Assembly: GCA_964487045.1 (NCBI GenBank)
Contig: CAZAOT010000001.1
Location: 70,745 to 134,744 of the forward strand
Source of the DNA: an uncultured Candidatus Saccharibacteria bacterium
Lineage (GTDB): Bacteria; Patescibacteriota; UBA1384; DTJR01
Reading direction: 5' to 3'
DNA: 64,000 bases
Under the pieces are notes generated by a model. That model made no database searches, was not told the DNA's origin, and saw nothing but the letters and a program-made list of their open reading frames with translations. Below, in pieces: positions 2-57,927 of this stretch; position 1 is the stretch's first letter; the number at the start of each line of letters is the position of its first letter. The position numbers and the translations under genes were made by a program.

Positions 2-3000
2 ACCGCTTATGTCGCTGGCATTACTTATGACGAGTCCTCTGGTTATATTTATGCCACAATAAACGCAGGAGCGATCAAAACCAAAATTGATGGAACGGGT
101 TATACCAAGTTAAGTTCTCAGGGCTCGGGCTCTGGATACATTTCTAACACCGCCGGTGGGCTGGTCTATAATACAAACGACAACAAACTATATATTGCCG
201 ATACTGGTAATAGTAGATTGACTGTGTTAAATGTTGGTGATTTCTCTGCACTCGCCGAGTCGTCATCGAGCGGTTTTTCAAAAGGCAGGCTGAATTATCC
301 CCGTGGTTTTTCTTATGATTCCTCAACTGGCTACTTTTATATAGCTGACGCATATAACCACCGAATTGTTAAGACAAAAATAGACGGTACTGGCTGGGAA
401 ACTTTTGGTACTTACGCTTCTAGTAGTAACTTGATAGGGCAATTCAATTATCCTTCGGACGTCTATTACGATTCGGCTAGCGAATATTTATATATAGCTG
501 AATCCGGTGGTTCAAGGATAGTTAAAACAAAATTTAATGGCGCTGGTTGGACGAGCTATGGCTCAAATGGGTCGGGTACTGGAAACTTTAATAATCCGTA
601 TGGAATATGGTACGACTCGGGTTCAGACTACATTTATGTTGCCGACACTAGTAACCGGCGAATTGTCAAAACCAAGATTGACGGCACCGGCTGGACGACT
701 TATGGTAGCTTGGGATCGGGGGTAGGTAATTTTAATAGTCCAAGGGATGTTGTTTTTGATTCTGCTTCTGGAAATTTATATATCGCTGACACTAGTAATT
801 ACCGAATTGTTAAGACACAAATAGACGGCACCGGCTGGACGACGTATGGCAGCGCAGGATCGGGGGCAGGTAATTTTAATAGTCCTACGGGGATTTCTTA
901 CGATTCATCAACGGGGAATATTTATGTCGTAGATTATGGTAATTATCGTGTGGTTCGCACACTGATTGATGGTTCGGGGTGGTCGGAGTTTGGGGTTAAT
1001 CATGGTAATGCCGGAGGTTATATTAGTGGAAGCTTTAATAATTTGACTGGAGGGATTTCATATGACTCTTCAACTGGCACCGTTTGGGTTGCTCAAGGAT
1101 CAAATACAGCACAAAGTTACAGCCAAATTATCGGATTTACAATGGGTGGTGGTTGGACAAGCTATGGCTCAAGCGGGTCGGGAGCGGGTAATTTTTCCAC
1201 GCCGTCGGCGGTGTATTACGACCAGCCTTCCGGTTATTTATATATTGCAGATAAAGACAATGAACGCATTGTAAAAACCAAGATCGACGGCACCGGTTGG
1301 ACGACTTATGGCAGCTCAGGATCGGGGGTAGGTCAGTTCGCTTTAAATACTATGGATGGAATTTGGTATGACGCCGCCACTGAATATATTTACATTGCTG
1401 ACACTGGGAATAACCGTATCGTCAAGACAAAAATAGACGGTACCGGCTGGACAACATATGGCAGTTATGGGACTGGGAATGGAAAATTTTCTAATCCACG
1501 CGGTATTAATTATGACTCTGCCTCTGAATATTTATATATTGCCGATTCTGGGAATAACCGTATCGTCAAGACAAAAATAGACGGCACCGGTTGGACGACT
1601 TATGGAAGTGGTGGCGCGGCGATAGATAAACTATCGTCCCCGTATGATGTTAAATACGACCCTGCCAGCGAATATTTATATATTGCCGACTATGGAAATA
1701 GCCGTGTAATTAAAACAAAAATTGATGGAACAGGGCTGACCTTTTACGGAGGCCCGGGTAACTCGAGTAGCTACAATAAAGGTGTAGGATTTTTAACCGG
1801 AATTACCGGTGTAGATTATGATGCGGCAACCGGCTATGTTTATGCAACCGCTTCGGGGACATCAGCCAATCGTATTTCAAAATTTAAAATGGATGGAAGC
1901 TATTTTGCAGCTCTTGGATCAGACGCTGGCAGTGGGATTGATGTATTTAGCGCACCGAACGGAATTGCTTATGATAGTAGCACTGGCAATTGCTACGTTA
2001 TGGATTCAAGTAATAATCGAGTCGCCAGAGTTAATATTGGCGGAGATAATTGGCAATCGATCGGTAGGGGATCACTAGATTTTAATCGTTATTATGGCAG
2101 AGGCTTTTTCTATGATCAATCAGCGGATGATATATTTTTAACCAATTCTTACCCAGGCACAATTTCTAAGATGAAGTTTGGCAGTGAATCGCGCACAAAT
2201 TATTTTATGACTTCTACCACAGGGCAGACAAAAGTCGGTCAAATTTCGTACCCAATAGATGTGTATTATGATAATGCCAGCGGTTATTTTTATATCCTTG
2301 ATGGGTCCACCAGTCTTATTAAAACAAAAGCAGATGGCACTGGGTGGACAACGCTTGGCAGTCTTTCTTCCCCAAAAAGTGTTTGGTATGATTCTGTCTC
2401 AGATTATATCTATGTAGCAGATACCAGTAACGACAGAATTGTTAAGAGTAAGATTGATGGGACTGGTCGTGTTAATTATGGCACCGCTGGAACTGGAATC
2501 GGCAACTTTAATGATCCTCAAGGCGTGTACTACGATGCCGCCTCTGAATACCTCTATATTGCTGACACTGGGAATAACCGAATTGTCAAAACCAAGATTG
2601 ACGGTACCGGCTGGACAACATATGGCACAACCGGTTCTGGTACAGGAAACTTTAACTCTCCCGGGCGCATATATTACGATGCGTCTTCAGATAATATCTA
2701 TATTGCTGATATTACCAACAACAGGATTGTAAGGACTAAAATTGACGGCACCGACTGGGCAACTTTAAATGTTTTTGATACACCTAATGACGTCCAGTAT
2801 GATTCGTCTACGGGATACTTGTATGTTCCATTAGCAAGAGGAAATGTACTTAAAACAAAATGGGATACATATAGTTCATATTCAACTACCTTATCGGCTA
2901 GCAACAAAGTCTTGCTTCAGTCTCAGGGGGACGGTATGAGGCTTGAGATGGATCCTTTAACTTCAAGGATTGTTTTTTATCCAGTATATAATACGAACAA

Positions 3001-5998
3001 GGATATATATGTCAAATCAGATGCTTTAAACACCTCTGGTGATACTTGGACTAAAATTGATGCTTACTGGAATCAGCCTGCGGGTCAATTGAAACTTGTC
3101 GTTGACGATACCGAATATGTAGGAACGGGAACTTGGGATCTACCGAGTTATGGCGACAATTTTTATGTTGGCTCAAATACAGCTGGCACAGAAACTCTCG
3201 GGGGATCAATTGACAATCTACGACTTATGGATATTTACGAAGATTCGGATATGCCGACCAATCCAACTACTGTTCATGGTTATTCTGCTACAAATAAGTC
3301 AATAGAGTTAACGAATGACCAGTGGTACACCTACACGACCACAGGACCGTATTTCGAGTGGTCGGGGGCGGCTGATGTCGGCTCGGGTATTTCTGGTTAT
3401 TATGTTTATTTTGGAACAAATGGATCTGCTAACCCAATAACACAGGGTACATTTCAAGAGGCGGCGACCTATCAAAACACTACTAACCTAACAACGGGTC
3501 AGACTTATTATTTGCGAGTTTCAGCAAAAGATAACTCCAACCATTCGGCAGTCGGAACAACATTATTTACCTACAAATATGATGTTGATCCTCCAAGTCC
3601 GCCAGACCATGTAGATGTGAATCCGCTTGGATGTTCAACCGCGGCAAGCTACACAATGAGTTGGGATGAGCCTAGCGGCGGTAATTCTGGGGTGATGGGC
3701 TACGAGTATAAAAATGGACCTGACGGAGAAGTAGCATATATTACAGAAAGACAGGCTGTTGTCAGCCATTATCAAGATAATGGTAACTTCTTTTATGTAA
3801 GAACTAAAAATAATGCTGGAAGTGTATCAAACTGGCAATCCGCAACTTATTGTTATGCTACGGATGCTGGGCCACCAACTAATCCGACAACAGTTGAAGG
3901 TAAAAATACCTCTGGTGGATCAGTTACTCTAACTAGTGGAAACTGGTATAATTACTCGAGTCCTTACTTCAGTTGGAATGATGGCACTGATGACACTGGC
4001 ATAGCAGGGTATTATGTATATTTTGGAATTTCTGCTGTTGCCGATCCGGCAACCGACGGAGTTTATCAAGCCGGAAAAACATACACTGCTACAGCCTCAA
4101 GCTCTGGGCAAAACTACTATTTAAGAATAAAAGCAAAGGATCTGGCAGGTAATGCTGCGGCAACGACTTGGGAGGCATTTAATTATCGATATTCGACTGA
4201 AGCGCCTGAAAACCCGACAAATCTAACGGTTTTATCGTCTCAAGGAAGTTCTACAAATTTGACTACTGCTACTTGGTACAATCATGCTCATCCATATTTC
4301 GAATGGTCGGGTGCCGGAGGGGGGCAGGGAGTCCAGGGTTATTATGTTTATTTTGGCACAACCGAAGGAGCGGATCCTCTGAACGATGGAGTATTTCAGG
4401 TTGCCAATACTTATTCGCCGACGACTATGAATTCAGGCTCAACTTATTATTTAAAAATTAAAGCCAAGGATAATGCTGGTAACCCTGCGAGTGCAACTTG
4501 GTCGCCGTTTAATTATAAATATGACGGTACGGCTCCCGAAATCCCCGAATTTATTTCAGTTGATCCTAAAAACTGTTCAACAACAACAAGCTTCACTCTA
4601 AGCTGGGATGCGGTTACTGACGGGCAATCGGGGCTTGCTGGTTATGACTATAAAAAGGGTAGTTCTGGTTCGGTGGTTGAGACAGATGAGCATTCGATAG
4701 CCGTGACTGCCTACCAAGAGGGCGATAACATTTTCTATGCCAGAAGCAAAGATAATGCAGGTAATACATCTTCTTGGCAAACTGGTGTATTTTGCTCGAC
4801 TGGAACTGTTCACGTGACTAGTGGTCCTCAAGCCGAAGCAGGTCCTTCTTCGCTTGAAGTATCGTGGGTAACTGACAAGAAATCAACCTCTTATGTGCAG
4901 GTATATGAAGGTAATACTTATATATCGGAACAAGGTCATACATCGTATTCGACTGCTCACTCAGTGCAAACGGTCGGTCTAAAGCCAGAGAAAGAATATC
5001 GATATAAATTAGTTTGGACAGACGAAAATGGTAATTTAGGTGAAAGTGAGTGGAATACAGCGGATACTGCTATCGCTCCAGTAGTGAAGGAGATCAGAGC
5101 AGACGTAACCGATCCTCGGACAGCACTTGTTTCGTGGCAAACTACATATGTTTCTACTTCAGAATTACAATTTGTGGACGGTACTAGAGAAGCTATAAAA
5201 TCTGGAACTGGTACTGATTTTTCACAAAAAATTGACAATCTCGAACCAGGAAAGAATTATCAAATTAGAATCAAATCCATCTCCGACGATGGAACTGAAT
5301 TTTTTGGTCAAGACGTGATAGAGACTCCACCACTTCCGACAATTTCAAATCTTAGAATGGAGTCAGACAATAAAGGTTCAAGTGTAAAGATTAAGGCTGA
5401 TTGGATTACCAATACTGAAACTACCCAAAGTCTTTTTTACGGATTAAAGGGAGAATCCAAAAAAGAAGTTTCATCTAGCGAGAAAAAGATAGAGCATAGC
5501 CTGGAAATTTCGGGCCTTCAAGATCAGACCGAGTATGAAATATATGTTTCTGGAGCAGATAAGTATGGCAATGTCATCAATTCCGAAGTAAGAACATTTA
5601 CTACTCCTATTGATACTAGACCGCCACAGATTTCCGAAATCACTACTGAGAGCTCAAACGTAGGATTAAACAAACTTGATAAAGCCCAAATAGCTGTATC
5701 GTGGAAGACTGACGAGCCTGCCTCTAGTTATATCGAATATTCTGAAGGCATTAGTGGCGATGATTACTCTAGCAAAACAACCGAGGACAAGAACTACTCC
5801 ACGAGTCGTGTGATTATTATTCCTGACTTAGATCCAAATCGAGCCTATCATATGAGGGTTGTGTCTACTGACAAAGCAGGAAACGTTACTAAATCAGAGG
5901 ATGTTTCGGTTGTTCCTGGAGAAGTACCGCGATCACTCTTGAAAGTATTGTTATCAACTTTTGAGAATGTGTTTGGTTGGTTGGGGAACTTGATTTAA
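2..5998 (+). CDS. Giant surface protein, 5'-truncated at window edge. It has >25 NHL-type beta-propeller repeats (IVKTKIDGTGWTTYGS...NFNSP...YYD...YIYIAD), then 3-4 FN3-like modules (HPYFEWSG...GYYVYFG...YYL..KAKDNAGN), PAP-N/FN3-like domains and a conserved C-terminal tail.
   Basis: Frame 2 is open from nt 2 with the same repeat motif, so the gene starts upstream of the window; the track gives 1926 aa from an internal Met at 218. Repeats and FN3 signatures were read directly from the translation. Confidence 0.8.
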   Translation, partial: TAYVAGITYDESSGYIYATINAGAIKTKIDGTGYTKLSSQGSGSGYISNTAGGLVYNTNDNKLYIADTGNSRLTVLNVGDFSALAESSSSGFSKGRLNYPRGFSYDSSTGYFYIADAYNHRIVKTKIDGTGWETFGTYASSSNLIGQFNYPSDVYYDSASEYLYIAESGGSRIVKTKFNGAGWTSYGSNGSGTGNFNNPYGIWYDSGSDYIYVADTSNRRIVKTKIDGTGWTTYGSLGSGVGNFNSPRDVVFDSASGNLYIADTSNYRIVKTQIDGTGWTTYGSAGSGAGNFNSPTGISYDSSTGNIYVVDYGNYRVVRTLIDGSGWSEFGVNHGNAGGYISGSFNNLTGGISYDSSTGTVWVAQGSNTAQSYSQIIGFTMGGGWTSYGSSGSGAGNFSTPSAVYYDQPSGYLYIADKDNERIVKTKIDGTGWTTYGSSGSGVGQFALNTMDGIWYDAATEYIYIADTGNNRIVKTKIDGTGWTTYGSYGTGNGKFSNPRGINYDSASEYLYIADSGNNRIVKTKIDGTGWTTYGSGGAAIDKLSSPYDVKYDPASEYLYIADYGNSRVIKTKIDGTGLTFYGGPGNSSSYNKGVGFLTGITGVDYDAATGYVYATASGTSANRISKFKMDGSYFAALGSDAGSGIDVFSAPNGIAYDSSTGNCYVMDSSNNRVARVNIGGDNWQSIGRGSLDFNRYYGRGFFYDQSADDIFLTNSYPGTISKMKFGSESRTNYFMTSTTGQTKVGQISYPIDVYYDNASGYFYILDGSTSLIKTKADGTGWTTLGSLSSPKSVWYDSVSDYIYVADTSNDRIVKSKIDGTGRVNYGTAGTGIGNFNDPQGVYYDAASEYLYIADTGNNRIVKTKIDGTGWTTYGTTGSGTGNFNSPGRIYYDASSDNIYIADITNNRIVRTKIDGTDWATLNVFDTPNDVQYDSSTGYLYVPLARGNVLKTKWDTYSSYSTTLSASNKVLLQSQGDGMRLEMDPLTSRIVFYPVYNTNKDIYVKSDALNTSGDTWTKIDAYWNQPAGQLKLVVDDTEYVGTGTWDLPSYGDNFYVGSNTAGTETLGGSIDNLRLMDIYEDSDMPTNPTTVHGYSATNKSIELTNDQWYTYTTTGPYFEWSGAADVGSGISGYYVYFGTNGSANPITQGTFQEAATYQNTTNLTTGQTYYLRVSAKDNSNHSAVGTTLFTYKYDVDPPSPPDHVDVNPLGCSTAASYTMSWDEPSGGNSGVMGYEYKNGPDGEVAYITERQAVVSHYQDNGNFFYVRTKNNAGSVSNWQSATYCYATDAGPPTNPTTVEGKNTSGGSVTLTSGNWYNYSSPYFSWNDGTDDTGIAGYYVYFGISAVADPATDGVYQAGKTYTATASSSGQNYYLRIKAKDLAGNAAATTWEAFNYRYSTEAPENPTNLTVLSSQGSSTNLTTATWYNHAHPYFEWSGAGGGQGVQGYYVYFGTTEGADPLNDGVFQVANTYSPTTMNSGSTYYLKIKAKDNAGNPASATWSPFNYKYDGTAPEIPEFISVDPKNCSTTTSFTLSWDAVTDGQSGLAGYDYKKGSSGSVVETDEHSIAVTAYQEGDNIFYARSKDNAGNTSSWQTGVFCSTGTVHVTSGPQAEAGPSSLEVSWVTDKKSTSYVQVYEGNTYISEQGHTSYSTAHSVQTVGLKPEKEYRYKLVWTDENGNLGESEWNTADTAIAPVVKEIRADVTDPRTALVSWQTTYVSTSELQFVDGTREAIKSGTGTDFSQKIDNLEPGKNYQIRIKSISDDGTEFFGQDVIETPPLPTISNLRMESDNKGSSVKIKADWITNTETTQSLFYGLKGESKKEVSSSEKKIEHSLEISGLQDQTEYEIYVSGADKYGNVINSEVRTFTTPIDTRPPQISEITTESSNVGLNKLDKAQIAVSWKTDEPASSYIEYSEGISGDDYSSKTTEDKNYSTSRVIIIPDLDPNRAYHMRVVSTDKAGNVTKSEDVSVVPGEVPRSLLKVLLSTFENVFGWLGNLI

Positions 5999-6040: not shown

Positions 6041-6673
6041 TTATTTTAATCCATTAATTATAAATCTTACGATATTCTTTTTGTAACTTGTTAAATCATA
6101 TTTTTTCGAGTTAATTTCTAGGAGCATGACCTGAGAAACAATTACGCTGAGTATCAAACCAGCAAATTCCATCGTTTTAAAATCAGTGTGAAATTCTTTT
6201 TTCCTTTGACCTTCGTCCAGTATTTCCTTCAGAGTTCTGTGAAAGTGATTATCCTCCATTTTGCCAATGAGATTGTTTTGTGAAATAGAAAATTCAAAAA
6301 TTGCCAATAATCCTAGCCTCTGATTGTCCATATTGCCATTTACCAGAAGATTAAGAGCTCTCTCGAGTTTAGCCTCAGCAGAAAAAGTATCTTGTATAGA
6401 AGACTCATATATTTGTTTGAATTCTAGACCCAACAAATCCATAACGCTTTTGAAAATATCTTCTTTGGAAGAAAAGTGATGATAAACAGTTCCTTTTACT
6501 ACATTAGCCTTCGCTGCAATCATATCAACGGTTGACCTGTCGAAACCATGCCGAGCAAAAATCCTTTTTGCTCCTAAAAGAATTTTTTTTCTACTGGACT
6601 TATAGATCCTTTTATTCAATTTGGGCATTAGGAAATATATATCATATATTGCATAAATAATAAATATTCCCAT
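6041..6673 (-). CDS. TetR/AcrR-family transcriptional regulator
   Basis: N-terminal HTH signature KKILLGAKRIFARHGFDRSTVDMIAAKANVVKGTVYHHFSSKEDIF. Likely true start is the internal Met (MPKLNKRI, ~6628). Divergent from the giant gene at 6745. Confidence 0.8.
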   Translation of the reverse strand: MGIFIIYAIYDIYFLMPKLNKRIYKSSRKKILLGAKRIFARHGFDRSTVDMIAAKANVVKGTVYHHFSSKEDIFKSVMDLLGLEFKQIYESSIQDTFSAEAKLERALNLLVNGNMDNQRLGLLAIFEFSISQNNLIGKMEDNHFHRTLKEILDEGQRKKEFHTDFKTMEFAGLILSVIVSQVMLLEINSKKYDLTSYKKNIVRFIINGLK

Positions 6674-6744: not shown

Positions 6745-9700
6745 ATGGGAGGGCGTATTTATAAGGTTGTTTACAGGACGAAAACTGTTGGCCGTAGGTT
6801 TAGCCGTGCCTTTGGTAATCTTTTTTTTGATGCTATCCAGGTAGTAAAAGTTTTATTCAAAATTAGGCGTTGCCCTGAAAAATTTTTGTCTAAATTTTTA
6901 ATATTAGCATGCCTAATCTCAATGGCTGTTTTAGTTTATGTTTATCCGTCGTCTGCAAATAGCAAATCTTATTCGATAACTACAAAAGAAGATTGGGAGG
7001 GAGGCACTCTTTCTAATCTTATAACTACTGATGCTCCCGGGGATCTTAAACTTGCTTCGGGTGGAACACTTTCTCATCAGGCTTGGCAAGACCCTCCAAA
7101 TACTGTTGGCTCTGGTGCAGCTGCTTCGGATGGGACAGATATTTATTTGCTCCGGGGTAATTACGATATTAATTTTTATAAGTATTCGAGTGCAAAAAAT
7201 ACTTGGTCGACATTGGCTGACGCTCCAGTGCAGGTTGGCCAAAGTAGTGCGCTTACTTATGATAACAGCGGTCATTTTTATGCTTTTTTTGGTAGAAATA
7301 CTCGCCAGTTTTATAAATACACAATCGCAACAAATTCTTGGACTGCTCTGGGTGACTTGCCCGACACGGTTAATATTGGTTCAAATATGGTGTTTACTAA
7401 CGGCAAGTTGTATATCTTGCGCTCAAACGCAACGACTGATTTTTGGTCATATACAATCGAAACAGGCGCTTGGGCAACCCTCAAGGCAACGCCTGCTACA
7501 TTTACAACCGCAAACGGATTTGTGACAGATGGGACTTATATTTATGCCTGTCGAGGTAATACTTTATGGTATAGGTACAACATCGCTTCAAATATTTGGG
7601 AGGCAATGACGACAGTTCTGCCAATTTCTCTAGCAGAGCAAACAGATTTTGTTTTGAGAAATGGAAGTATTTATTTTGCCGCACCCAGCTCTGCAACATA
7701 TTACAAGTGTGAACTTAGTGGTTTGGCTTGTACCGGAAATGCGTGGACAACGGCTACAACACTTCCTGCCGCAACTCGTTATAGCAACGCTGTCTACAAT
7801 GCATCCGATGATTATATTTATATTTTTCGTGGTAATAGTACTTACGATTTTTGGAAATATAGGCCCGGGGAGAGCAAAGTTGCTGGTCCTCAAATTTTTC
7901 CGCAAAACTTTACTACTGGAGGAGATATTGTTTACGGTGGAGGCGACACGGTCTATGGCTTGAAGGGAGCAGCAGCAGCCAATGGTTTTTATTCATATTC
8001 GATTGCCTCAGGCACATGGACACTCAAATCAGTCACTGGCTTGCCAACCCTCAGCAATGATGCAAAGACTGTAAAAGCGGGGGATAAGATTTATACATCA
8101 TCGGCAGCAAGTACTGCCTTCACAGCTTACGACACTACCAATGATGCGGCTGGTTGGGTAGCTAAAGCGGTTTCTCCGGGGGCTTTCGGAGCAGGTACAT
8201 CATTTACGTATCTCGGTGGGGATCTTATCTATGCGATGAGAGGTGCGGGTACTGTAAGTTTCTATGCCTACAGCATTTCAAATAATAACTGGTCAACATT
8301 TGACCCAGCCGATCTGCCAGCTGGTCTCGCACCAAGCATTGGTGCCCGCACTGTGACTAATGGTACTGAAATATTTGCGACAATGGGTAATGGAAGTAGT
8401 AAATTTTATAAGTATGAAGCCCAAAGCAATACTTGGGAAGAGAAGACTCAGCTTCCATTTGGCGCATATTATGGAACGGATCTGACATATTACAACGGAA
8501 AAATTTATGCAATCGATGGAAACTATCGGTCCGGACTATACGAATATGATATTTCAGCAAATAGTTGGAGAAAATTAGCCGACCTTCAGACCAGAACGAA
8601 TCTAAATAATGGAATGTGGTCAGGAAGTTCTATCGAATACGTAGGAAACAATGATCTGATGATCACTTTCGGGGCATCAAATATGGTTTTCTTTTATGAT
8701 GTTGATTCAAATACTTTTGCTTCCAGCGGATCTTACGAGTCAGCTTCAATCGACTTGGGAAATGTTTCAGCTTGGGGCTCGCTAACTGTAGCCAAGACAA
8801 CTCCGAGTGGAACTTCGGTTGTGGTTGAGACCAAAACTAGTGCCGACAACACCAATTGGCCTGAAAATTGGACTGCAGTATCTGGCACAACTATTGGATC
8901 TGACATTAATCGGTATGTAAAAATAAAGATTACTTTGAACGCAAATGGTGATAGAACACTTGCTCCGACAGTCAGCTCTCTAACCTTAAATTATAATCCC
9001 GATGATGTTGATCCAACTAATCCTCAGCAGGGTTCATTCACGGGACTTTCAGCAGAGGGGGGCACTGCGATAACGTCAACGACTGCGTACAGACACGAAC
9101 ATCCTTATTTCAGCTGGTCTGCAGGCGCTGATGCTGATTCTTATGTAGAAGGATATTATGTGTATTTTGGTTCTAATCAATCAGCGGATCCACAAGTAGA
9201 TGGAGTGTATCAAACAGCTACAAATTACAAAGTAAATGACAAGATTGCCGTTGGGAACAACTATTTATTAGTTAAAACCAAGGACCAGGCTGGAAATATT
9301 ACCGATAGTGCTGTCCAAGGGTTTATCTATAATTATATAGGAGCTACGCCTGCTACCTCGACTTTGTCTTCTGACGCGGATTTTAACGCTGGAGACAAAA
9401 CTAACCTTAGTGTCTCATCGGATAGCTTTGCGTTAGAGTCAAAAGCTGGCTTTTGGCAACAACAAAAGCTTTCTGTTTTTCCAGCCACGAGCGCTGCAGG
9501 AGCATCGATTATTAAGAAGGGTAATAAGCTCTATGCTACTCGCGGCTCGACAAATGCTTTTTATTCCTATGATTATGATACAGATACTTGGGCAACACTA
9601 ACGAGTACTAATCTAGGAGCTATGACAACCAACGGAGGCCTGGTCGACGGTCCTGGAAATTATATTTACGCATACCGTGGTAGCACTAGCGCATCATTCT

Positions 9701-12700
9701 ATAGATATGACGTGACAGATGATGCAGCTGGTTGGAGTGATGCCGATGCGGATGATGTGCCTGCTGCGCTAGGCGCTGGCTGCAATTCAACTTATGATGG
9801 CTCTAGATATATTTATATGTTTAAGGGCAACTCAAATGTTTTTTATAGGTTTGATCCTCAGGGCGACTCTAATGGGACCTGGGAATCAATGGAGCCGGTA
9901 AATTTTGGGACAAACACAGCAAATAACACAGTCGCTGACGGAGGCCAGCTTGTCCATGACGGAAGCGGAACTATATATGCAATTCAGGGAGGTCATTATC
10001 CTGGCGGATTTGCCAAATATACTATTTCAAGTGATACATGGACGCCGTTAAACTTTATTCCTGTTGGACCGTCAAGTGGTGCTTCTATGGTATGGGATTC
10101 TACAACTTCAAAAATATTATTAATTCCGGGCTATTCACGTGAATATTTATATAGTTATAACCCAGCAAATTCTTCCTGGACAAAGCTCAGTGATGCCCCG
10201 ATGACTTTTACGACAGGTACATCGGCTACAATTTCAGGCGACTACATGTATGTAATCAAGGGAAATAGCACAGGGTTCTATCGCTATAGAATTTCCAAAA
10301 ATTCATGGGAAATGCCAAGCTTTAATTTATTTGGAACGAATTTTCAGGGTGGATCGTCTTTCGCCTCTATTACGGGCGCGTTTGTTTTAAAAGGTGATGG
10401 CGATAATTTCTATTTAAACAGAGGTAATCTCGATACTAGGTTCATAAGGTATAATTCAAGAACAGGCGCCAGTAACCAAATGCCATCACTTCCAAGTGCT
10501 TCCAACCAATATTCTCTGCAAGTTTATGACGATGATCGAAATGATATATACTATTATTCAACCGCAGACAGTACCTTCTATAAATATGATATTGATACTG
10601 AATCATGGGAGAAGATTGCTACGGATCTTTTGCCGCAAGCGCCAGCAGCTGGATCTTCTTTTGTTTATGACGGCTCTACTTATATATACTATTTTAGAGG
10701 CGGAACAGTTTGGTACAGATATAATATTACTGCCGATGCAGGCTCGAGATGGTCAACAGCACTGCCTACAACCGGAATGTCAACTCTGGGTTACGGTTCA
10801 GATACAGTCATCAAAGATGGGTTTGTTTATGCTAATAGAGGATCGGTTGGAAATCCCAATGAATTTCGAAAGTTTGACCTGAGTCAATTACCTTCAGGTT
10901 CATGGTCCAATTTAACATCGATTCCTTATCCGGTCGGATACGATGGATTTTTAGAGGACGGTGGAAATGGCAAGCTCTATATACTAGCTGCCCATAACAC
11001 TAATAGATTTTACGAGTATACAATTGGTACTGACTCCTGGGCTCAGGTGGCAAATTTTCCAGGAGTTGCATATCAAGGTTCGGCTGGTGCCTCCGATAAA
11101 TTAAGTAAGATCTTTGCAATCTCTGGAAACGGAACTGGTTCGTATGCAGATGGTCTTTATAGCTATGTAATACAATCAGCAACATCTTCGTTTAAAGAAG
11201 AGGGAAATTTCATTTCTCCATCAATCGAACTCTCTGGAGCATACAAATTCGCTAATCTTACGCTAAATTACGAAGAAAAAAATAACACAACCGTCACTGT
11301 GTATACTCAAACTTCGGCAAACGGAGCAAGCTGGAGTGATTGGTCGCAGGCCACTAATATGAAGAGCTATGGCTTATCCGAGTTGGCTCACCAATATCAA
11401 ATTAATTCACCGCTTGCCAGATATATAAAAATAAAAGTTGAGTTAGTTTCTGGCGATGGGGTACTGTCACCGTCAATCAGCCAAATAGATATAAATTACT
11501 ATCAAGACAATACGAAACCAACAAACCCGCAAGCGTTATCGCAGGCAAAATCTGCTAAAGTTTCCGGTAGTGATATTACAAGCGGAATGGATAAATGGTA
11601 CAATTTCCCGTCAGCTTACTTCGCAATGCCAGAATCGGAGGCTGCAAATGGTGCATCAGATGGCGCAAACGGCTCCGGAGTAGCAGGATATTATATATAT
11701 ATGGGAACGAGTTCAGACGCTGTTCCTTCTCAAAGTCGGGGTATCGCCAATCAAGTTGGTGAAGCAAATCTTCATTATCAGACAGATCTTGATCTTGAAT
11801 TATCCGTGGATAGCTCTGCGCTTGAAACAGGTAAAACATATTATCTCTTGACGCAATCTAAGGACGCAGCTGGCAATGTGGCTGAAGCTATAAAAACATT
11901 GTTTATTTATAGATTTGATTCAACTGCTCCTTCAGCGCCGGCATCTGTTAATGCGACACAAAATGATCAAAAAACCCAATTTAACTTTACATGGCCTGCG
12001 CAGGGCGCGGAAGGAGGAGCGGCCGATGTTGATCCAAACGATTCTGACTCTCTGATTAACCCCTCTGGTTTAGCTGGTTATAAATATAAGACTGGAGCTG
12101 CATGGTCGTCATTAATCACTGAGTCAACTGTAAGTATTTCAAATAATCAAAATTTAGCAGGGGAGAATACTTTTCACTTGATAGCAATTGACAATGCAGG
12201 TAACGAATCAAGTGAAGCGACAGTTAAGTTTTATATCGCTCCGACCCAACCGCAAAATTTAAGTGCCTTGCCGGTTACATCGGCTCAAAATCCATCTGAA
12301 ACTAACAACTTTAAGTTTGTCTGGGAAGCTCCAACGTCAATGAATGGCAGTATAAAGCAGTATCGCTATTCGGTTAACGCACCGCCAACCGCTTTGAATA
12401 CCGTTAATCAGGTTATTACAGGTACGACGCTAGGCTGGGGTGCTTACGCAACCCAACAGGGCAAGAACACGCTATATATTGTTGCTGAAGGCGATTGGGG
12501 TGGAAGCAATATTAATTACGATGCCTATGCAACCCTTGATTTTTATATCGAAACGCCCGCACCAAATCCTCCCGAAAACTTATCGGTTACAGACAGCTCT
12601 AACAGATCCAGCTCTGACTATAGATTGACTGTGGTTTGGAGTGAGCCAAAGACTGGCGAGGAGCCAGAAAATTATGTGGTAAAGCGATCAACTGATAATC

Positions 12701-14109
12701 AAAGTTTTTCGGAGGTTGGTACTACTTCTTCAACCGGGTTTCTGGATTCGGACTTGGAAGGAGATAAGACTTATTATTATAAAGTTTTTTCAAAAGATTC
12801 TGCAGGTGCACTTTCTGAAGATCAAGGCTCAAACGGTACGGTATCTAAGAAACCGACCGGAAAATATTCCACTCCACCAACGATCGCAGAATCATCAATT
12901 CATTCAGTAGCAGGAGCATCAACCGTTGAAATTAACTGGGTTACTAATCGTGCATCGGACTCATTTGTTGAATATGGTACAACTGAGGCTCTTGGGCAGA
13001 CTTACGGACAAAGAGAAGAGGTTACGGAACATAAGGTTAAGATTGATGGGCTAAAGGCTGGCAACAAGTATTATTTCAAAGCCCAGAGCTTGGATCCGGG
13101 TGATTTGAGAGACTACTCACAGACAGTTGGATATTCTGAGGTTCATGAGTTTGAAACAACGGCTGCTCCTACATTATCGAGCGTATCTTTCTCGAACATT
13201 ACTACAAGTTCGGCGATTATGAGTTTTGATACTAATAAAACTTCAACTGCGAAAATACAATATGGGACATCGACAGAGTATGGAAAAGAAATTGTTGATT
13301 CGTCAGGATCTGGAACTACTAAGCACACCGTTCTCCTTGAGGATTTACAGGATGGGACAACGTATCAGCTAAAAGTGACAATTACAGATGAAGAAAATAA
13401 TATCGTTGATTCTCCGGGTCATGCTTTTACCACAAGGGCAAAGCCAAAAATTGAGGCAATGAATATTGAGCCGATCAAAGATGCGTCCGATACGTCCGTC
13501 AAAGTCACTTGCGTCGCTAATGTCGAGGTAGCGTTCTCAGTTCAATATAGTCCATCTACTGATTCGGCGAAAAAAGAAGTAGCAACTGCTGAATTTAAGA
13601 AAGTGCACGAATTCACAGTCAATGGCTTGTCTGACCAGAGTAAATATTCTTTTCAGGCAATTGCTAGAGATCAACTTGGGAATGAGGTAAAGTCCGAAGT
13701 CAAAACATTTGATACACCAAACGACTCAAGACCACCTGCCATTACTGATATCTCGACTGAGAGTTCGAATGTGGGTCTTAATAAGCAGGACAAGGCGCAA
13801 ATTGTTGTTGCTTGGAAAACTGATGAGCCTACGACTAGCATGATTGAATATGGCGAAGGAATGTCTGGAACGGATTACAGCCAGAAGACTAAAGAAGACG
13901 CAACCATGACCAATTCCCACCTTGTAATTATTTCAGATCTTGAGCCAAGCCAAGCTTATCACATAAGGATTTCGTCTACGGATAAGGGAGGGAATAATAC
14001 TAAATCAGAGGATATTTCGGTTGTTCCTGGCGAAGTTCCAAAATCTGTCTTACAGATGCTACTTAATACTTTTAAAGATGTTTTTGGATGGATGGGAAAG
14101 TTGATATAG
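6745..14109 (+). CDS. Giant (2454 aa) membrane-anchored surface protein. N-terminal signal/anchor, Kelch-like beta-propeller blades (~50-aa repeats with YxY/FYKY/W motifs), FN3-like modules, PAP-N/FN3 domains, and a conserved C-terminal module shared with the 2-5998 protein.
   Basis: Long ORF. Hydrophobic segment FLILACLISMAVLVYVY near the N-terminus. The C-terminal 130 aa are ~60% identical to the C-terminus of the first giant protein (…SEDISVVPGEVPKSVLQMLLNTFKDVFGWMGKLI). Start uncertain: an in-frame TTG before SKFLILACLIS is possible. Confidence 0.8.
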   Translation: MGGRIYKVVYRTKTVGRRFSRAFGNLFFDAIQVVKVLFKIRRCPEKFLSKFLILACLISMAVLVYVYPSSANSKSYSITTKEDWEGGTLSNLITTDAPGDLKLASGGTLSHQAWQDPPNTVGSGAAASDGTDIYLLRGNYDINFYKYSSAKNTWSTLADAPVQVGQSSALTYDNSGHFYAFFGRNTRQFYKYTIATNSWTALGDLPDTVNIGSNMVFTNGKLYILRSNATTDFWSYTIETGAWATLKATPATFTTANGFVTDGTYIYACRGNTLWYRYNIASNIWEAMTTVLPISLAEQTDFVLRNGSIYFAAPSSATYYKCELSGLACTGNAWTTATTLPAATRYSNAVYNASDDYIYIFRGNSTYDFWKYRPGESKVAGPQIFPQNFTTGGDIVYGGGDTVYGLKGAAAANGFYSYSIASGTWTLKSVTGLPTLSNDAKTVKAGDKIYTSSAASTAFTAYDTTNDAAGWVAKAVSPGAFGAGTSFTYLGGDLIYAMRGAGTVSFYAYSISNNNWSTFDPADLPAGLAPSIGARTVTNGTEIFATMGNGSSKFYKYEAQSNTWEEKTQLPFGAYYGTDLTYYNGKIYAIDGNYRSGLYEYDISANSWRKLADLQTRTNLNNGMWSGSSIEYVGNNDLMITFGASNMVFFYDVDSNTFASSGSYESASIDLGNVSAWGSLTVAKTTPSGTSVVVETKTSADNTNWPENWTAVSGTTIGSDINRYVKIKITLNANGDRTLAPTVSSLTLNYNPDDVDPTNPQQGSFTGLSAEGGTAITSTTAYRHEHPYFSWSAGADADSYVEGYYVYFGSNQSADPQVDGVYQTATNYKVNDKIAVGNNYLLVKTKDQAGNITDSAVQGFIYNYIGATPATSTLSSDADFNAGDKTNLSVSSDSFALESKAGFWQQQKLSVFPATSAAGASIIKKGNKLYATRGSTNAFYSYDYDTDTWATLTSTNLGAMTTNGGLVDGPGNYIYAYRGSTSASFYRYDVTDDAAGWSDADADDVPAALGAGCNSTYDGSRYIYMFKGNSNVFYRFDPQGDSNGTWESMEPVNFGTNTANNTVADGGQLVHDGSGTIYAIQGGHYPGGFAKYTISSDTWTPLNFIPVGPSSGASMVWDSTTSKILLIPGYSREYLYSYNPANSSWTKLSDAPMTFTTGTSATISGDYMYVIKGNSTGFYRYRISKNSWEMPSFNLFGTNFQGGSSFASITGAFVLKGDGDNFYLNRGNLDTRFIRYNSRTGASNQMPSLPSASNQYSLQVYDDDRNDIYYYSTADSTFYKYDIDTESWEKIATDLLPQAPAAGSSFVYDGSTYIYYFRGGTVWYRYNITADAGSRWSTALPTTGMSTLGYGSDTVIKDGFVYANRGSVGNPNEFRKFDLSQLPSGSWSNLTSIPYPVGYDGFLEDGGNGKLYILAAHNTNRFYEYTIGTDSWAQVANFPGVAYQGSAGASDKLSKIFAISGNGTGSYADGLYSYVIQSATSSFKEEGNFISPSIELSGAYKFANLTLNYEEKNNTTVTVYTQTSANGASWSDWSQATNMKSYGLSELAHQYQINSPLARYIKIKVELVSGDGVLSPSISQIDINYYQDNTKPTNPQALSQAKSAKVSGSDITSGMDKWYNFPSAYFAMPESEAANGASDGANGSGVAGYYIYMGTSSDAVPSQSRGIANQVGEANLHYQTDLDLELSVDSSALETGKTYYLLTQSKDAAGNVAEAIKTLFIYRFDSTAPSAPASVNATQNDQKTQFNFTWPAQGAEGGAADVDPNDSDSLINPSGLAGYKYKTGAAWSSLITESTVSISNNQNLAGENTFHLIAIDNAGNESSEATVKFYIAPTQPQNLSALPVTSAQNPSETNNFKFVWEAPTSMNGSIKQYRYSVNAPPTALNTVNQVITGTTLGWGAYATQQGKNTLYIVAEGDWGGSNINYDAYATLDFYIETPAPNPPENLSVTDSSNRSSSDYRLTVVWSEPKTGEEPENYVVKRSTDNQSFSEVGTTSSTGFLDSDLEGDKTYYYKVFSKDSAGALSEDQGSNGTVSKKPTGKYSTPPTIAESSIHSVAGASTVEINWVTNRASDSFVEYGTTEALGQTYGQREEVTEHKVKIDGLKAGNKYYFKAQSLDPGDLRDYSQTVGYSEVHEFETTAAPTLSSVSFSNITTSSAIMSFDTNKTSTAKIQYGTSTEYGKEIVDSSGSGTTKHTVLLEDLQDGTTYQLKVTITDEENNIVDSPGHAFTTRAKPKIEAMNIEPIKDASDTSVKVTCVANVEVAFSVQYSPSTDSAKKEVATAEFKKVHEFTVNGLSDQSKYSFQAIARDQLGNEVKSEVKTFDTPNDSRPPAITDISTESSNVGLNKQDKAQIVVAWKTDEPTTSMIEYGEGMSGTDYSQKTKEDATMTNSHLVIISDLEPSQAYHIRISSTDKGGNNTKSEDISVVPGEVPKSVLQMLLNTFKDVFGWMGKLI

Positions 14110-14142: not shown

Positions 14143-14859
14143 ATGGGAAATAGGAGGGCTTTGTCTACACACGAAGCAGTTATTGAAGTAAAAGGGCTGG
14201 AAAAAACTTTTAAAGTTGGTCCGAACGAAATAAAAGCTCTTAGAGGGGTTGATTTAACGATTAAATCAACAGAATTTATTATTATATTCGGGCCTTCGGG
14301 CTGTGGTAAGACGACAATGATGAATATTATTGCCGGCATAGATACTCCTACAAAAGGTTCGGTAAAAGTTAGGGGAACTGACATATTTGCACTGAAAGAG
14401 GAAAAGAGAGGGATTTTTAGATCTGAAAAAATCGGAATTATTCACCAGATGGCTTACTGGGCTAAATCGCTAAATGTCCTACAAAACGTAGCTCTTCCTC
14501 TAATTATTGAAGGCCAAAAGGAAAAGATGGCAATAGAGCGAGCCGAGAAAGTTCTTCGAGAGCTTGGACTAGAGGAATTAGCTGGTCAACGACCAACTCA
14601 GCTTTCTGGGGGTCAGCAGCAGAAAATAGGTTTTGCCAGGGCGCTTATTACTAGCCCCTGGATTATTTTTGCAGACGAGCCCACTGGAAACCTAGACTCA
14701 AAGTCGGCTGAAGAAATTATGAAGTTATTTAAAATGTTAAATGAGAAATATAAAAGGACAATTATTCTGGTTACACACAACAAAGACTACTGGGGGCTGG
14801 GGACCAGAAGAATTGAAATGAAAGACGGTGTAATTTCTAAAGACGTGAAGCATGGATAG
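14143..14859 (+). CDS. ABC transporter ATP-binding protein (MacB/LolD/FtsE-like)
   Basis: Walker A GPSGCGKTT, ABC signature LSGGQQQKIGFARAL, Walker B IIFADEPTGNLD. Extended -10 TGgTATAAT (14124-14132) lies 10 nt before the ATG, so the transcript is possibly leaderless. Confidence 0.9.
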   Translation: MGNRRALSTHEAVIEVKGLEKTFKVGPNEIKALRGVDLTIKSTEFIIIFGPSGCGKTTMMNIIAGIDTPTKGSVKVRGTDIFALKEEKRGIFRSEKIGIIHQMAYWAKSLNVLQNVALPLIIEGQKEKMAIERAEKVLRELGLEELAGQRPTQLSGGQQQKIGFARALITSPWIIFADEPTGNLDSKSAEEIMKLFKMLNEKYKRTIILVTHNKDYWGLGTRRIEMKDGVISKDVKHG

Positions 14860-16054
14860 AAAATTTTTAGTTAAATTTGCATTTAAGAATCTGATGATGC
14901 ATAAGTCAAGAACAGTTTTGACTGTGCTTGGTGTGACGGTGGGTATATCAGCGATAGTCTTTTTAGTCGCATTTGCCTTCGGAATCGAAAGGCTGGTTAC
15001 AAGTGAAGTTACTAAGGGAAATGCATATAAGTTGATCGATGTTGGTACTGGAAGCGTGCAAGCGCTTAGAATTAACGAAGAAACTATCAACCAGCTCAAA
15101 CAAATATCTGGAGTCAAGTCGATTGAGCCTACCCTTAATATTGGGGCGAAAGCCAAGGATAAAGATCGTACAACAGATGTCACTTTTTCAGGTACAAGCG
15201 ATAAATATCTCGAATGGAGTGGCCTTGCTACACGTTGGGGAACGGGCTTAGAAAAGACTAAAACCGGTAAGCCGATTTTAGTTAATAGTGCTTTCTTAAA
15301 ATTTATGCCTTCATACAATAATCAGACTATCTTGGGGCAAGAAGTTAGCTTTGATTTAGTGATTCCTAAGGAGCTGACTTCAGAGGATGCCAAGAAAGCC
15401 ACCGACGCAAAATTTACAATTGTTGGTGTTGTACCTGATGGTGCGATTGCGACTGTCTATGCCAGGTACGGCGATGTCTTGGAGCTCGGGGCTAAGAATT
15501 TTTCGCAGATAAAAGTTGAATCTCAAACTGACGATAAGGTTAAAATCGACACAATTAGAAAGCAAATTGAAAACCTTGGTTACAAAACTCAGTACGTAGG
15601 GGATACTGTCGCGCAGATTGAACAAATCTTTCAAATTTTCAAAATTATTTTGGGAAGTTTCGGCCTGATCGCTCTGATTGTCGCTGCACTTGGTATGTTT
15701 AATACTTTGACTATTTCACTTTTGGAAAGAACCAAAGAAGTGGCTCTTCTAAAAATTCTTGGAATGCGCCGAAAAGACATTTCCTCAATATTCTTAACCG
15801 AAGCAATTTCAATTGGCGTCTTTGGCGGCGTGGTCGGTGTATTTACTGGATATTTAATCGGTCTCGGAGCTAACTCCTTGTTTAATTATTTTGCTACTCG
15901 TGCCGGAGGGGAATCAGTAGACGTATTTATGTTCCCAATTTGGTTTATGCTCGCGATTTGGGCTTTTGCGATTTTACTTGGCATAATAACCGGTATCTAT
16001 CCAGCTCGAAGAGCCTCCAAAGTCGATGCTCTTGATGTTCTAAGGTACGAGTAA
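14852..16054 (+). CDS. ABC transporter permease, FtsX/MacB-type (N-terminal TM, large extracytoplasmic domain, C-terminal 3-TM FtsX domain)
   Basis: Starts AFKNLMMHKSRTVLTVLGV as in MacB/LolE. Overlaps the ATPase gene by 8 nt. Hydrophobic C-terminal third. Confidence 0.85.
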   Translation: MDRKFLVKFAFKNLMMHKSRTVLTVLGVTVGISAIVFLVAFAFGIERLVTSEVTKGNAYKLIDVGTGSVQALRINEETINQLKQISGVKSIEPTLNIGAKAKDKDRTTDVTFSGTSDKYLEWSGLATRWGTGLEKTKTGKPILVNSAFLKFMPSYNNQTILGQEVSFDLVIPKELTSEDAKKATDAKFTIVGVVPDGAIATVYARYGDVLELGAKNFSQIKVESQTDDKVKIDTIRKQIENLGYKTQYVGDTVAQIEQIFQIFKIILGSFGLIALIVAALGMFNTLTISLLERTKEVALLKILGMRRKDISSIFLTEAISIGVFGGVVGVFTGYLIGLGANSLFNYFATRAGGESVDVFMFPIWFMLAIWAFAILLGIITGIYPARRASKVDALDVLRYE

Positions 16055-16123: not shown

Positions 16124-16933
16124 TCAGCCTTTCTTGCCGTACTTGATGTAGTTCGGGCAGAGATGCTGCGGCAGAGTGCCTTCGCGGACCTCTGACTTGT
16201 AACCGTCGCGGAGGCTGCCGTGGTAGCCGTAGTTGCGAAGCAGTAGCAGCCTCGCCTCTGGATCGGCGAGGAGAGTTGCCATCGGGATGGCGTGCTGCCT
16301 GGTGCAGCCCAGGCAGTAAATCGGTACGTCGCCCTCGCCGAAGCAGCCAGTGATCCATGAATCGGTCTGGTCCCAGTACAGGGGTTCGTACCTGTCGCTA
16401 CTCGTCAGATACCGGGTCGCCAGCTTGTAAGGTAGGGCGAATTTCGCGAAGCGCTCAGGCAGAAATGAGAGATCCTGAAAGATGATCGTTTCGTTCATCG
16501 CCGCGATGCCGTTGCCGGCTGCGACGCTGAACTGTCTGAGGCTCGTGAGCACGGTCGTCTCGTTGTCTTGTAGCTCGGCTGAGAGCACAATCGCGCGGCT
16601 CGGCACCGAAAAGTAGGCGCCATCATCGAGAAAGCCCTGACCGATGAAGTATGGTCTCATCGGCCTGCCAGAGAGTCCCATGCAGATCTGAACTGAGTTC
16701 GATGTTAGGTCCTCTCTGAAATGAATGATTGGTGTCGGATCAAGATCAAGAATCTCTTGTGGCACTTCGACTCTTGTCCGGTCATGCCAACCAAAGTCGG
16801 GGATCGGCTCGAAGATCAGCGAGCCCTTAGACGTCTGGTAGCAGATTGTCCCGCGATGCCGATCGCAGACTCCGCGATTCCTGTCCGTCTTGCGAACGTG
16901 CAACTTCATGCTTACTTCCGAGACTTTGTTCAT
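16124..16933 (-). CDS. Hypothetical protein (269 aa) encoded in a GC-rich island; several Cys/His pairs (CDRHRGTIC, GCFGEGDVPIYCLGC). Orphan, probably horizontally acquired.
   Basis: ORF fills the GC-rich island and has a GC3-rich codon pattern unlike its neighbours. SD GGGAGAAG 3 nt before the ATG. Minus-strand promoter TTGATT-17-TAATAT at 17032-17060. Confidence 0.5.
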   Translation of the reverse strand: MNKVSEVSMKLHVRKTDRNRGVCDRHRGTICYQTSKGSLIFEPIPDFGWHDRTRVEVPQEILDLDPTPIIHFREDLTSNSVQICMGLSGRPMRPYFIGQGFLDDGAYFSVPSRAIVLSAELQDNETTVLTSLRQFSVAAGNGIAAMNETIIFQDLSFLPERFAKFALPYKLATRYLTSSDRYEPLYWDQTDSWITGCFGEGDVPIYCLGCTRQHAIPMATLLADPEARLLLLRNYGYHGSLRDGYKSEVREGTLPQHLCPNYIKYGKKG

Positions 16934-37100: not shown

Positions 37101-37293
37101 AATCTTTAGAGCTTGTAGAAGTAGGCGCTGATGTAGATCCGGCTAGGGAAGTGGTTGACCAGTCTTTGAAGCCTGCGTTGTTCGCTCCAGCATTGCCCAC
37201 ATTGAACTCTGCTTTAGCTTTGCTGGAGAAAGAAAAAGATAATGCTAAAGCTAACACTAGAAAACTTAAGTATTTTATTTTAATCAAACCCAA
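34159..37293 (-). CDS. Large polytopic membrane protein (1044 aa). Signal peptide, extracytoplasmic N-domain, 6-8 TM core, long hydrophilic C-terminal extension; VirB6/TrbL/TcpH-like architecture.
   Basis: Signal MGLIKIKYLSFLVLALALSFSFSSKAKA, then a multi-TM core (…GLFRKWWTIMLIALFYTPAVNFIFYL…) paralogous to 39383-42349, then a ~550-aa low-complexity hydrophilic tail. Confidence 0.6.
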   Translation of the reverse strand: MGLIKIKYLSFLVLALALSFSFSSKAKAEFNVGNAGANNAGFKDWSTTSLAGSTSAPTSTSSKDFTGICNDMFRFQKENILQGPFCAIISVSASATAEFATNSTCTIQAVGMSNYDNSITFSSPLSATPGSTTGLCTGTNNSGGPLKVSGNNIFGVGKLLSTGTNSGIYDNKNYSQLTADLEPNNSGPGGWVNSGFRIVRGIAVSLGLILLFLIAFANILHIDINTYTVKRMLPNLIIALIGGYLAIYMIFILSRGVDFLYQFQVFSPYNAVHPFYNIMGGGASLGLHGVYNSVNAGQEALNVIFNIGGTVMGSAASDNKYSLVSGVLGTIFIFIPSVVVFAFEYVLALRPIVVGILTVISPIAFACYVMPQTQGLFRKWWTIMLIALFYTPAVNFIFYLMNTVSAPTGAGGLMLAVSILVKSAVIIFLIRLPFTIENDIKKLSLSLSKSSLAANLGLSKGANAELKVKQQNAAGVVTDKILESKAAQSIIAPTNRNLNRNVTNTTNKEETRSFARTFSSIVNRSTGGINAREVESISAKAHKANLDRPSGLLVNTISDIKPQTFRKILNTSNQSLFRETNIVNELRNKNGQVLDNQGALMRADAARKVTSLAKVVDQNRIVHPEAVKSLAQKGMLDVLPIEVLKLSLQQGIINPVDLKTNFKNPEAAYNKIINFKRGLPSEKSPLDENALKVEMEKDNKDATSGYLDLKSAIRANLESQAPLSTSTQNTSKVIESLHSQNQTYFDKNATYYIERLKETNNKSKETIAKTLQVAGTPAKTAVAIAQNPSLPFEQIKRYLPTTATPEIVNTIKQSVDSRDITQDAIGQISKALKEDKSVIGKAVVQKVSESFKSGSSRNFDDLKGQLTQAVKTLSSNPSPQDAKKAVSQVSSFAPGTALSGAATPSVEDIERTKDKGEEVVNTIDEMKMAGIKEQTVVSNPTQAVEQLDTHISEQIGGILAGQTKEGKTIEGQIAEVAVTKPASALKPDDQKEVPETDEDESMKSIDQIDSDQKQAQSILSAETKDGKSFDQQIGDISSAGNKKA

Positions 37294-50799: not shown

Positions 50800-50943
50800 G
50801 TTATCTGCTCGCTAGCGAAATCTAATAAATTCGATCTCTAGACGATTTTTTTCTTAAAGCGAGTTTTTCTAAACTTGCATTTTTTTGCAGCTTAAGCTTC
50901 AATCAAAATATATTATTACAGGTTTATTAATATTAATATTTTA

Positions 50944-54024: not shown

Positions 54025-54025
54025 T

Positions 54026-55183: not shown

Positions 55184-55259
55184 TATTTATAAGATATCTT
55201 CTTTTTACCTTAGTCGCAAATTGTTTACTTTTAAGAAGAAAAATTGTACATTGAGAGCA

Positions 55260-57849: not shown

Positions 57850-57856
57850 GCTAAAC

Positions 57857-57906: not shown

Positions 57907-57927
57907 CGATCCTTGAGGAGGCAGGAA

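Follow-up and report, generated by a model that had tools for sequence, protein, structure and literature searches.

A conserved C-terminal tail on giant surface proteins of Patescibacteria is frequently encoded beside a type VII ABC transporter

We examined a 64-kb stretch of DNA (64,000 nucleotides, hereafter the window) from contig CAZAOT010000001.1 of an uncultured Candidatus Saccharibacteria bacterium, in which two giant surface proteins end in a related C-terminal module and the genes for an ATP-binding cassette (ABC) ATPase and its permease lie directly downstream of the second giant (Table 1). This single window is the coverage of the source genome, and the protein libraries searched hold little taxonomy. 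Giant 1 has an open frame from base 2 onwards, and its gene extends past the 5' edge of the window. Pfam matches giant 1 to NHL, fn3 and Pur_ac_phosph_N, and giant 2 to Kelch, an Attractin-type propeller, fn3 and Pur_ac_phosph_N, which bears out the statement of a first-pass annotation, made from the sequence alone, that the two proteins carry different N-terminal propellers. The neighbours that it had named, a TetR gene between the giants, an ABC ATPase and a MacB_PCD/FtsX permease, were likewise found by Pfam, and the two tails that it had quoted match the translations of 5570-5998 and 13681-14109 exactly.

A BLASTP comparison of the whole giants aligned residues 1428-1926 of giant 1 with residues 1928-2454 of giant 2 (37% identity, E = 9e-84). 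The shared C-terminus had previously been put at about 130 residues, and the last 142 residues, which form the terminal module, are indeed 65% identical; however, the collinear homology spans the last ~530 residues of both giants, comprising four to five FN3-like domains at 37% identity overall, and it is only over the last FN3 domain and the tail that identity climbs from the ~30% seen upstream to ~70%. In an AlphaFold model of the giant 1 module, an all-beta FN3 sandwich (pLDDT, the predicted local distance difference test score, ~90) is followed by a PGEVP linker and a C-terminal helix of ~19 residues. Pfam also assigns the last globular domain to FN3 (fn3, E = 1.7e-15; best stretch, residues 1820-1898 of giant 1), the top Foldseek matches of the module were FN3 domains and its PDB profile matches were the FN3 domains of Dscam and PTPRD; the PDB sequence and Foldseek searches with the module returned nothing beyond generic FN3 domains. 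The terminal helix is predicted to be amphipathic and not transmembrane. Its hydrophobic moment is 0.49 and its mean hydrophobicity 0.29, below transmembrane level, in giant 1, and its moment is 0.51 in giant 2; the tails for which these values were computed range over 0.40-0.51 and 0.22-0.36 (~0.27), respectively, and the maximum 19-residue Kyte-Doolittle mean of the two window tails (0.5-1.2) is too low for a transmembrane segment. Scans of both tails yielded no matching Pfam or NCBIfam model, and in the literature searched neither the tail nor an association of it with MacB-type transporters is described for Patescibacteria.

Table 1. Position of the giant-protein genes, their conserved parts and the adjoining genes in the window.
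Feature	Position	Strand	Description
Giant 1	2..5998	+	partial at the 5' end of the window; NHL-repeat propellers, then FN3-like array, then tail
Conserved FN3-array core of giant 1	4499..5995	+	~500 aa; homologous to the C-terminal core of giant 2
Terminal module of giant 1	5570..5995	+	last FN3 domain, PGEVP linker, predicted C-terminal helix
41-nt tract	5887..5927 and 13998..14038	+	38/41 identical between the two giants
Predicted C-terminal amphipathic helix of giant 1	5936..5992	+	SLLKVLLSTFENVFGWLGN; model residues 123-141
TetR-family regulator	6041..6673	-	between the giants; Pfam TetR_N, TetR_C_4
Giant 2	6745..14109	+	2454 aa; N-terminal signal/anchor sequence, Kelch-type propellers, FN3-like array, tail
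Conserved FN3-array core of giant 2	12526..14106	+	from BLASTP and alignment to minimal tail proteins
Terminal module of giant 2	13681..14106	+	last FN3 domain, linker, predicted helix
Predicted C-terminal amphipathic helix of giant 2	14047..14103	+	SVLQMLLNTFKDVFGWMGK; aligned to the modelled helix of giant 1
ABC ATPase of the cassette	14143..14859	+	238 aa, LolD/FtsE/MacB type; Pfam ABC_tran
Type VII (MacB-like) ABC permease	14852..16054	+	four transmembrane helices, MacB-type extracytoplasmic domain

Word-indexed protein searches returned only two short fragments for the 142-residue module and 14 fragments for an alignment of 57 tail sequences. Because searches of this kind seem to miss giant proteins, we used an exhaustive profile search over 1.84 billion representative proteins, which gave 13,821 matches, mostly to common FN3 repeats; about 63 of the best 150 of these matches end in the tail, the proteins being 616-6321 residues long (median ~2260). 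A pattern scan of one genome per species located the tail at 70 loci, essentially all of them in Patescibacteria (their labels include Moraniibacteriota, Falkowbacteria, Parcubacteria and 'Patescibacteria group'), and in each of the 67 tail open reading frames (ORFs) from these loci the motif ends 0-6 residues before the stop codon. Several genomes hold three or four copies. Homologues of the window permease at 50-78% identity are labelled Candidatus Berkelbacteria, which places the window nearest to that group. The cassette of tail protein, ATPase and permease was also seen in metagenome-assembled genomes (MAGs) labelled Bathyarchaeia, Bdellovibrionales or Gammaproteobacteria (L006, L007, L009, L025, L028, L039, L042, L050, L052, L059, L062 and L064-L066); these bins are probably mislabelled, because in 12 of the 13 compared the permease shares 55-86% identity with its counterparts in MAGs labelled Patescibacteria, the exception being L042 at 46%. 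In line with the first-pass annotation, the tail therefore behaves like a terminal signal shared across the family, being strictly C-terminal on many different proteins of many Patescibacteria genomes and often multicopy. It is neither confined to the two giants of the window nor part of a common FN3 domain without terminal conservation, since the terminal helix is kept across genomes.

The consensus over 165 distinct tails reads S-[IV]-[ILF]-[DQ]-[IL]-I-[ILV]-x-N-[FL]-E-x-[TS]-F-G-W, and the core motif of the helix, which is 19-22 residues long, is S-[IV]-x-[QD]-[IL]-I-x3-[FL]-x3-F-G-W. Among 42 permease-anchored tails, which were collected without any tail pattern, the conserved positions are S (83%), I (88%), [LF] (92%), [FL] (95%), G (92%) and W (90%).

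The C-terminal position had led to a comparison with three established sorting signals, the C-terminal domain (CTD) of the type IX secretion system (T9SS), PEP-CTERM and LPXTG, and the tails proved to belong to none of them. TIGR04183 (Por_Secre_tail), which describes the type A CTD of T9SS, gives no match to the tails even at E <= 10; in a positive control, the CTDs of other FN3-array proteins scored 36.7-43 bits against a cut-off of 23. An LPXTG/sortase signal was rejected, as neither tail has an LPXTG motif, a transmembrane stretch or an NCBIfam match, and no sortase or exosortase gene was present among the window ORFs scanned. PEP-CTERM was rejected as well, on the lack of a transmembrane helix and an NCBIfam match in the tails and of an exosortase within the window; the VPGEVP of the linker is superficially PEP-like, and other clades have LTPxxK there instead. 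In other phyla, FN3-array proteins bear a T9SS-type end at the position of the tail: a pattern match assigned 24 of the best 150 profile matches to this group, and three of the four such ends tested exceed the TIGR04183 cut-off.

In many lineages, the gene adjoining the transporter genes encodes a 'minimal' tail protein of ~520-600 residues, built, in order, from a signal peptide that carries an AXA site (..PAAA/EE), an FN3 domain, an acidic helical linker, three FN3 domains and the tail; one such minimal cassette lies at L040 (8600-13243). The C-terminal half of this protein (its last ~260 residues) can be aligned collinearly with the end of giant 2, the match to its first FN3 domain lying further upstream in giant 2. 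Judged from this alignment, the window giants are a conserved core to which propellers and other domains have been added N-terminally, and the family as a whole spans ~520-residue minimal proteins up to 6000-residue giants with propellers and other ectodomains. At locus L064 (231-8531) and similar Falkowbacteria-type loci, a tail-less giant gene (>2700 aa) lies directly upstream of the gene for a ~520-residue tail protein; ORFs related to this tail-less giant occur in 33 loci, in a cluster that has shorter members as well (median 614 aa). Giant 2 and most complete relatives have a signal or anchor sequence at the N-terminus, and those of giant 2 (..FLILACLISMAVLVYVYPSSA/NS in translation) and of the minimal proteins have an AXA site, at which the signal peptide would be cleaved. 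The protein database holds a full-length form of giant 1, P0123 (2338 aa); its N-terminus, MDGTGWTTYG.., falls inside an NHL repeat and has no signal peptide, and probably either its start was mis-called or the gene is interrupted.

We then asked how regularly the tail and the transporter genes occur together. Counted forward from the tail genes, an ABC ATPase lies directly 3' in 37 of the 62 cases with at least 1.5 kb of downstream sequence, and the ATPase and a MacB_PCD/FtsX permease both lie 3' in 33 of the 58 cases with at least 3.2 kb; in four more, the ABC pair is directly upstream of the tail gene. The arrangement of the window recurs at the independent loci L001, L003 and L004. In the reverse direction, permease look-ups on long contigs found a tail gene upstream of the ATPase in three out of three, and a metagenome scan seeded with permease sequences only placed a tail ORF just upstream of the ATPase at 25 of 26 informative loci with close permease orthologues (at least 280 bits); for more distant permeases, a tail gene was upstream at 12 of 29 loci. 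The link between the module and the ABC ATPase and FtsX/MacB permease, suggested before from their adjacency in the window, is thus a conserved, reciprocal gene neighbourhood, and the co-location of a partner gene with the transporter genes is the arrangement known from type VII ABC-partner complexes of the FtsEX-EnvC kind. Several tail genes may be present in one genome, at most one of them seen beside the transporter, so that the relation is many-to-one; the unlinked tail genes are mostly extra paralogues in multicopy genomes.

Only the ATPase and the permease recur broadly around the tail genes, the other clusters being antisense ORF artefacts or lineage-specific surface proteins, and the neighbour check of related loci found no broadly conserved membrane-fusion protein, sortase or protease. 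No TetR gene was present among the called genes of the related loci examined, and a TetR regulator was accordingly rejected as a component of the system; the one between the giants is probably incidental. Just downstream of the permease, on the minus strand (16124-16933), lies a 269-aa ORF without a Pfam match. L076 and L077, both from the window organism, carry an ORF of equal length in the same place, and L078 has a 256-aa ORF, likewise without a Pfam match, at this position.

The 3' ends of the two giant genes are also similar in their DNA, which the first-pass annotation had taken as a sign of recent duplication or gene conversion. The stretch that it quoted is real, but it is an island of 41 nucleotides within modules that are ~66% identical at the DNA level. 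Orthologues of this tract in other species match it at no more than 27 of 41 positions, and it was rejected as a conserved nucleotide element; it is possibly a micro gene-conversion tract. Across the module, the same codon is used at only 30-57% of identical residues, which is also the range of the poorly conserved stretch upstream, and synonymous sites are near saturation. High protein identity combined with synonymous sites that are no more conserved than upstream indicates purifying selection on an old sequence, and a recent duplication or conversion of the module is therefore not supported. In other MAGs, different contigs (L014/L015/L017, L019-L021 and L004/L005) start within an identical C-terminal module, sharing at least 75-111 identical residues, and diverge downstream. 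This suggests that several genes per genome have identical 3' ends, which break the assemblies, and the 3' ends seem to be homogenised among paralogues of the tail family. Such identical ends, together with the 38/41 identity of the short tract, could be taken to mean that the similarity of the giants merely reflects a recent partial duplication of, or gene conversion between, neighbours and that the tail is functionally meaningless. The overall DNA identity of only 66%, the codon identity at identical residues and the presence of the same tail on many distant proteins and genomes make this extremely improbable; as the sole explanation, recent duplication is refuted by the codon data, the distribution and the reciprocal synteny.

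The ATPase and permease belong to the type VII (MacB/Lol/FtsEX) ABC superfamily. The permease matches MacB_PCD (residues 21-241) and FtsX (269-391) in Pfam, and its closest solved chains are 5xu1 (the MacAB-like permease of S. pneumoniae), YtrF, MacB and LolC/E/F. The best NCBIfam matches of the ATPase are LolD, FtsE and MacB, all under the cut-off. The scores obtained (LolD, 204 bits against a cut-off of 308; FtsE, 185 against 265; lolCE, 76.9 against 362; MacB, 69 against 966; FtsX, 37-38 against 225-255) led us to reject LolCDE, FtsEX or MacB proper at the equivalog level. In Berkelbacteria-type loci the ATPase has 232-238 residues, and in Moraniibacteriota/Falkowbacteria-type loci it has ~437-454 residues with a helical C-terminal extension (L004, 420-1733; L040, 10613-11974); the tails end in FGW[LM]G.. 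at loci with the short ATPase and in FGWxKK.. at those with the long one, a correlation that may be purely phylogenetic.

Transporters of type VII have no transmembrane substrate channel, and their known roles are few, namely cell division, lipoprotein release, efflux and lipid hydrolysis. Through mechanotransmission they act upon an extracytoplasmic partner, which is frequently encoded together with the transporter (PMC7668044, PMC12646458). In FtsEX-EnvC, the partner binds the permease through the helices of a coiled coil (PMC7668044), and YbbAP-TesA was recognised through co-location and co-evolution (PMC12646458). The identity of the transporter bears on one possible reading of the tail, namely that it is a secretion signal and directs export of the giant by the ABC transporter next to it, in the manner of type 1 secretion. 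A C-terminal and apparently uncleaved signal on giant, repeat-rich proteins adjoining an ABC transporter would fit such a scheme. Giant 2 and most complete family members, however, have Sec-type N-terminal signals, the transporter, whose ATPase is a separate protein, belongs to the MacB/FtsX type and is not an HlyB-type exporter, no membrane-fusion gene is among the conserved neighbours and no outer-membrane component is nearby, and the mode of action of type VII transporters, mechanotransmission in the absence of a substrate channel, is a different one. We rejected the tail proteins as type 1 substrates and regard export by this route as very unlikely.

The reading that we prefer, in which our confidence is about even, is that surface proteins exported by Sec are kept at the membrane by their tail, which would dock to the type VII ABC machine or be handled by it. 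Sec would export the tail protein and the signal peptide would be removed, after which the C-terminal helix would be the sole element able to retain the protein at the cell; the helix would then dock to, or be picked up from the outer leaflet by, the machine encoded directly downstream. The FN3 array would serve as a stalk through the wall, with the module at its membrane-proximal end and the propellers displayed distally, and several proteins of one genome would share one tail type and one transporter. Synteny and conservation together suggest that the transporter recognises the tail; the helix may contact the permease, and ATP hydrolysis may anchor, extract or hand on the protein. The specific polar and aromatic residues that are conserved in the helix favour a protein partner over plain lipid binding, although they do not prove it. 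On a wider and more tentative reading, which we think rather less probable, the cassette would represent an unrecognised sorting or anchoring pathway of Patescibacteria, in which a dedicated MacB-like machine recognises the S-x2-[QD]-x-I-x3-[FL]-x3-F-G-W helix and, through ATP-driven mechanotransmission, extracts, holds or presents FN3-stalked proteins. If true, such a pathway would be a peptide-anchor counterpart of Lol and would govern the display of giant adhesins that probably contact hosts.

Several observations weigh against a role of the tail in docking to the transporter. About a third of the tail genes do not adjoin a transporter, ~60% of the loci with more distant permease homologues have no adjacent tail gene, and the linkage was judged on loci rather than on whole genomes; the synteny may reflect a looser functional link between tail and permease. 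The full-length form of giant 1 lacks the N-terminal signal peptide that the scheme presupposes, if its start is not mis-called. The confidence of the helix model is only moderate (pLDDT ~63-66). The genome-scan tails (57 distinct, from 67 ORFs) were found with an NFE..FGW pattern, which biases their counts, so that the argument for conservation rests on the other two sets of tails.

An amphipathic helix with such values could, moreover, bind lipid unaided. E. coli PBP5 and PBP6 have C-terminal amphipathic-helix membrane anchors, and that of PBP5 is reported to bind lipid by itself. The tail helix might likewise be an autonomous in-plane anchor in the outer leaflet of the cytoplasmic membrane, the ABC genes being otherwise employed or acting through the FN3 domains. 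By the computed values the tails have the properties of such an anchor, high moment with moderate hydrophobicity; a moment of 0.45-0.51 and a hydrophobicity of ~0.27 resemble those of the PBP5 anchor and are far from those of a transmembrane segment. The predicted helix is not packed against the FN3 domain, many tails end in basic residues (KK/R), which would favour anionic lipids, and the unlinked third of the tail genes also fits an anchor that needs no transporter. However, lipid-binding helices usually keep a pattern, whereas here S, [QD], N, E, F, G and W are kept across very distant sequences; the synteny among close permease orthologues (25/26) is reciprocal and nearly obligate; and both window tails lack a basic end. 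On balance we consider an autonomous anchor unlikely, although it carries appreciable weight.

The same helix could alternatively be an oligomerisation element that joins FN3 stalks into dimers or trimers through a coiled coil or bundle, perhaps matching the dimeric transporter. Hydrophobic residues at heptad-like spacing in the tail are consistent with this, and co-assembly would fit the presence of a minimal tail protein of ~540 residues by the transporter and of giant paralogues with the same tail type elsewhere. Nevertheless, a helix of ~19 residues is short for forming a stable coiled coil, neither the invariant G-W nor the aromatic end is typical of such structures, and oligomerisation by itself would leave the synteny with the ABC pair unexplained. 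We therefore judge this possibility to be quite unlikely.

Two further regions of the window were noted. Six consecutive ORFs on the minus strand (32665-42999; 496, 1043, 573, 129, 987 and 223 aa), for which Pfam gave nothing at E <= 1e-5, form an uncharacterised block of 10 kb. They are followed at 43167-59844 by a cluster for surface glycans and protein glycosylation, assigned by Pfam, which contains genes for a Polysacc_synt flippase, three GT4 proteins, two Wzy_C (O-antigen ligase-like) proteins and a GT2-GtrA protein, as well as three PMT_2-domain genes, one of them fused to a GT2 domain. The products of this cluster may modify the same cell surface that bears the giants.

Much of bacterial diversity belongs to Patescibacteria (the Candidate Phyla Radiation), most of which are believed to live as episymbionts, and the giant surface proteins that they encode are routinely put forward as factors for attachment to the host (PMC13059738, PMC11809585). 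With its conserved ABC partner, a C-terminal motif that is short and can be searched for would provide a criterion by which displayed surface proteins could be listed, genome by genome, in these lineages. The three-gene cassette of a ~520-residue tail protein, ATPase and permease is compact enough to be expressed and tested outside its uncultivable hosts, and its interest extends both to the cell biology of Patescibacteria and to the range of functions of type VII ABC transporters.

Among known systems, T9SS CTDs, LPXTG/sortase and PEP-CTERM/exosortase signals are like the tail in their strict C-terminal place, their occurrence on unrelated large surface proteins and their multiple copies, and homologous FN3-array proteins of other phyla bear a T9SS CTD where the tail sits. 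Unlike these signals, the tail lacks a transmembrane segment, an LPXTG or PEP motif and a beta-sandwich CTD of ~70 residues, and the candidate machine is an ABC transporter. The PBP5 and PBP6 anchors likewise belong to Sec-exported proteins and are short terminal amphipathic helices of similar moment (computed for PBP5), but the tail differs from them in its conserved specific residues, polar ones included, and in its conserved ABC neighbour. With LolCDE the cassette shares best NCBIfam matches that include LolD for the ATPase and LolC/E for the permease, and if the tail helix first lies in the outer leaflet, its pick-up by a MacB-type machine would resemble the action of LolCDE; here, in contrast, the anchor would be a C-terminal peptide helix and not an N-terminal lipid, and no LolA or LolB is evident.

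Close parallels are also the complexes of type VII ABC transporters with their partners (FtsEX with EnvC, PcsB, CwlO or RipC; YbbAP-TesA; LolCDE-LolA; MacAB), which have the same permease build and a separate LolD/FtsE-like ATPase. Here too an extracytoplasmic protein, which would bind the transporter, is encoded beside it. However, the tail protein is not a hydrolase activator, esterase, chaperone or adaptor; it is an FN3-array surface protein that ends in a short helix and can be thousands of residues long, and several different proteins of one genome share the tail. FN3-stalked giants with a short terminal helix are not among the partner classes described for type VII ABC transporters, and the tail proteins would add a new class to them.

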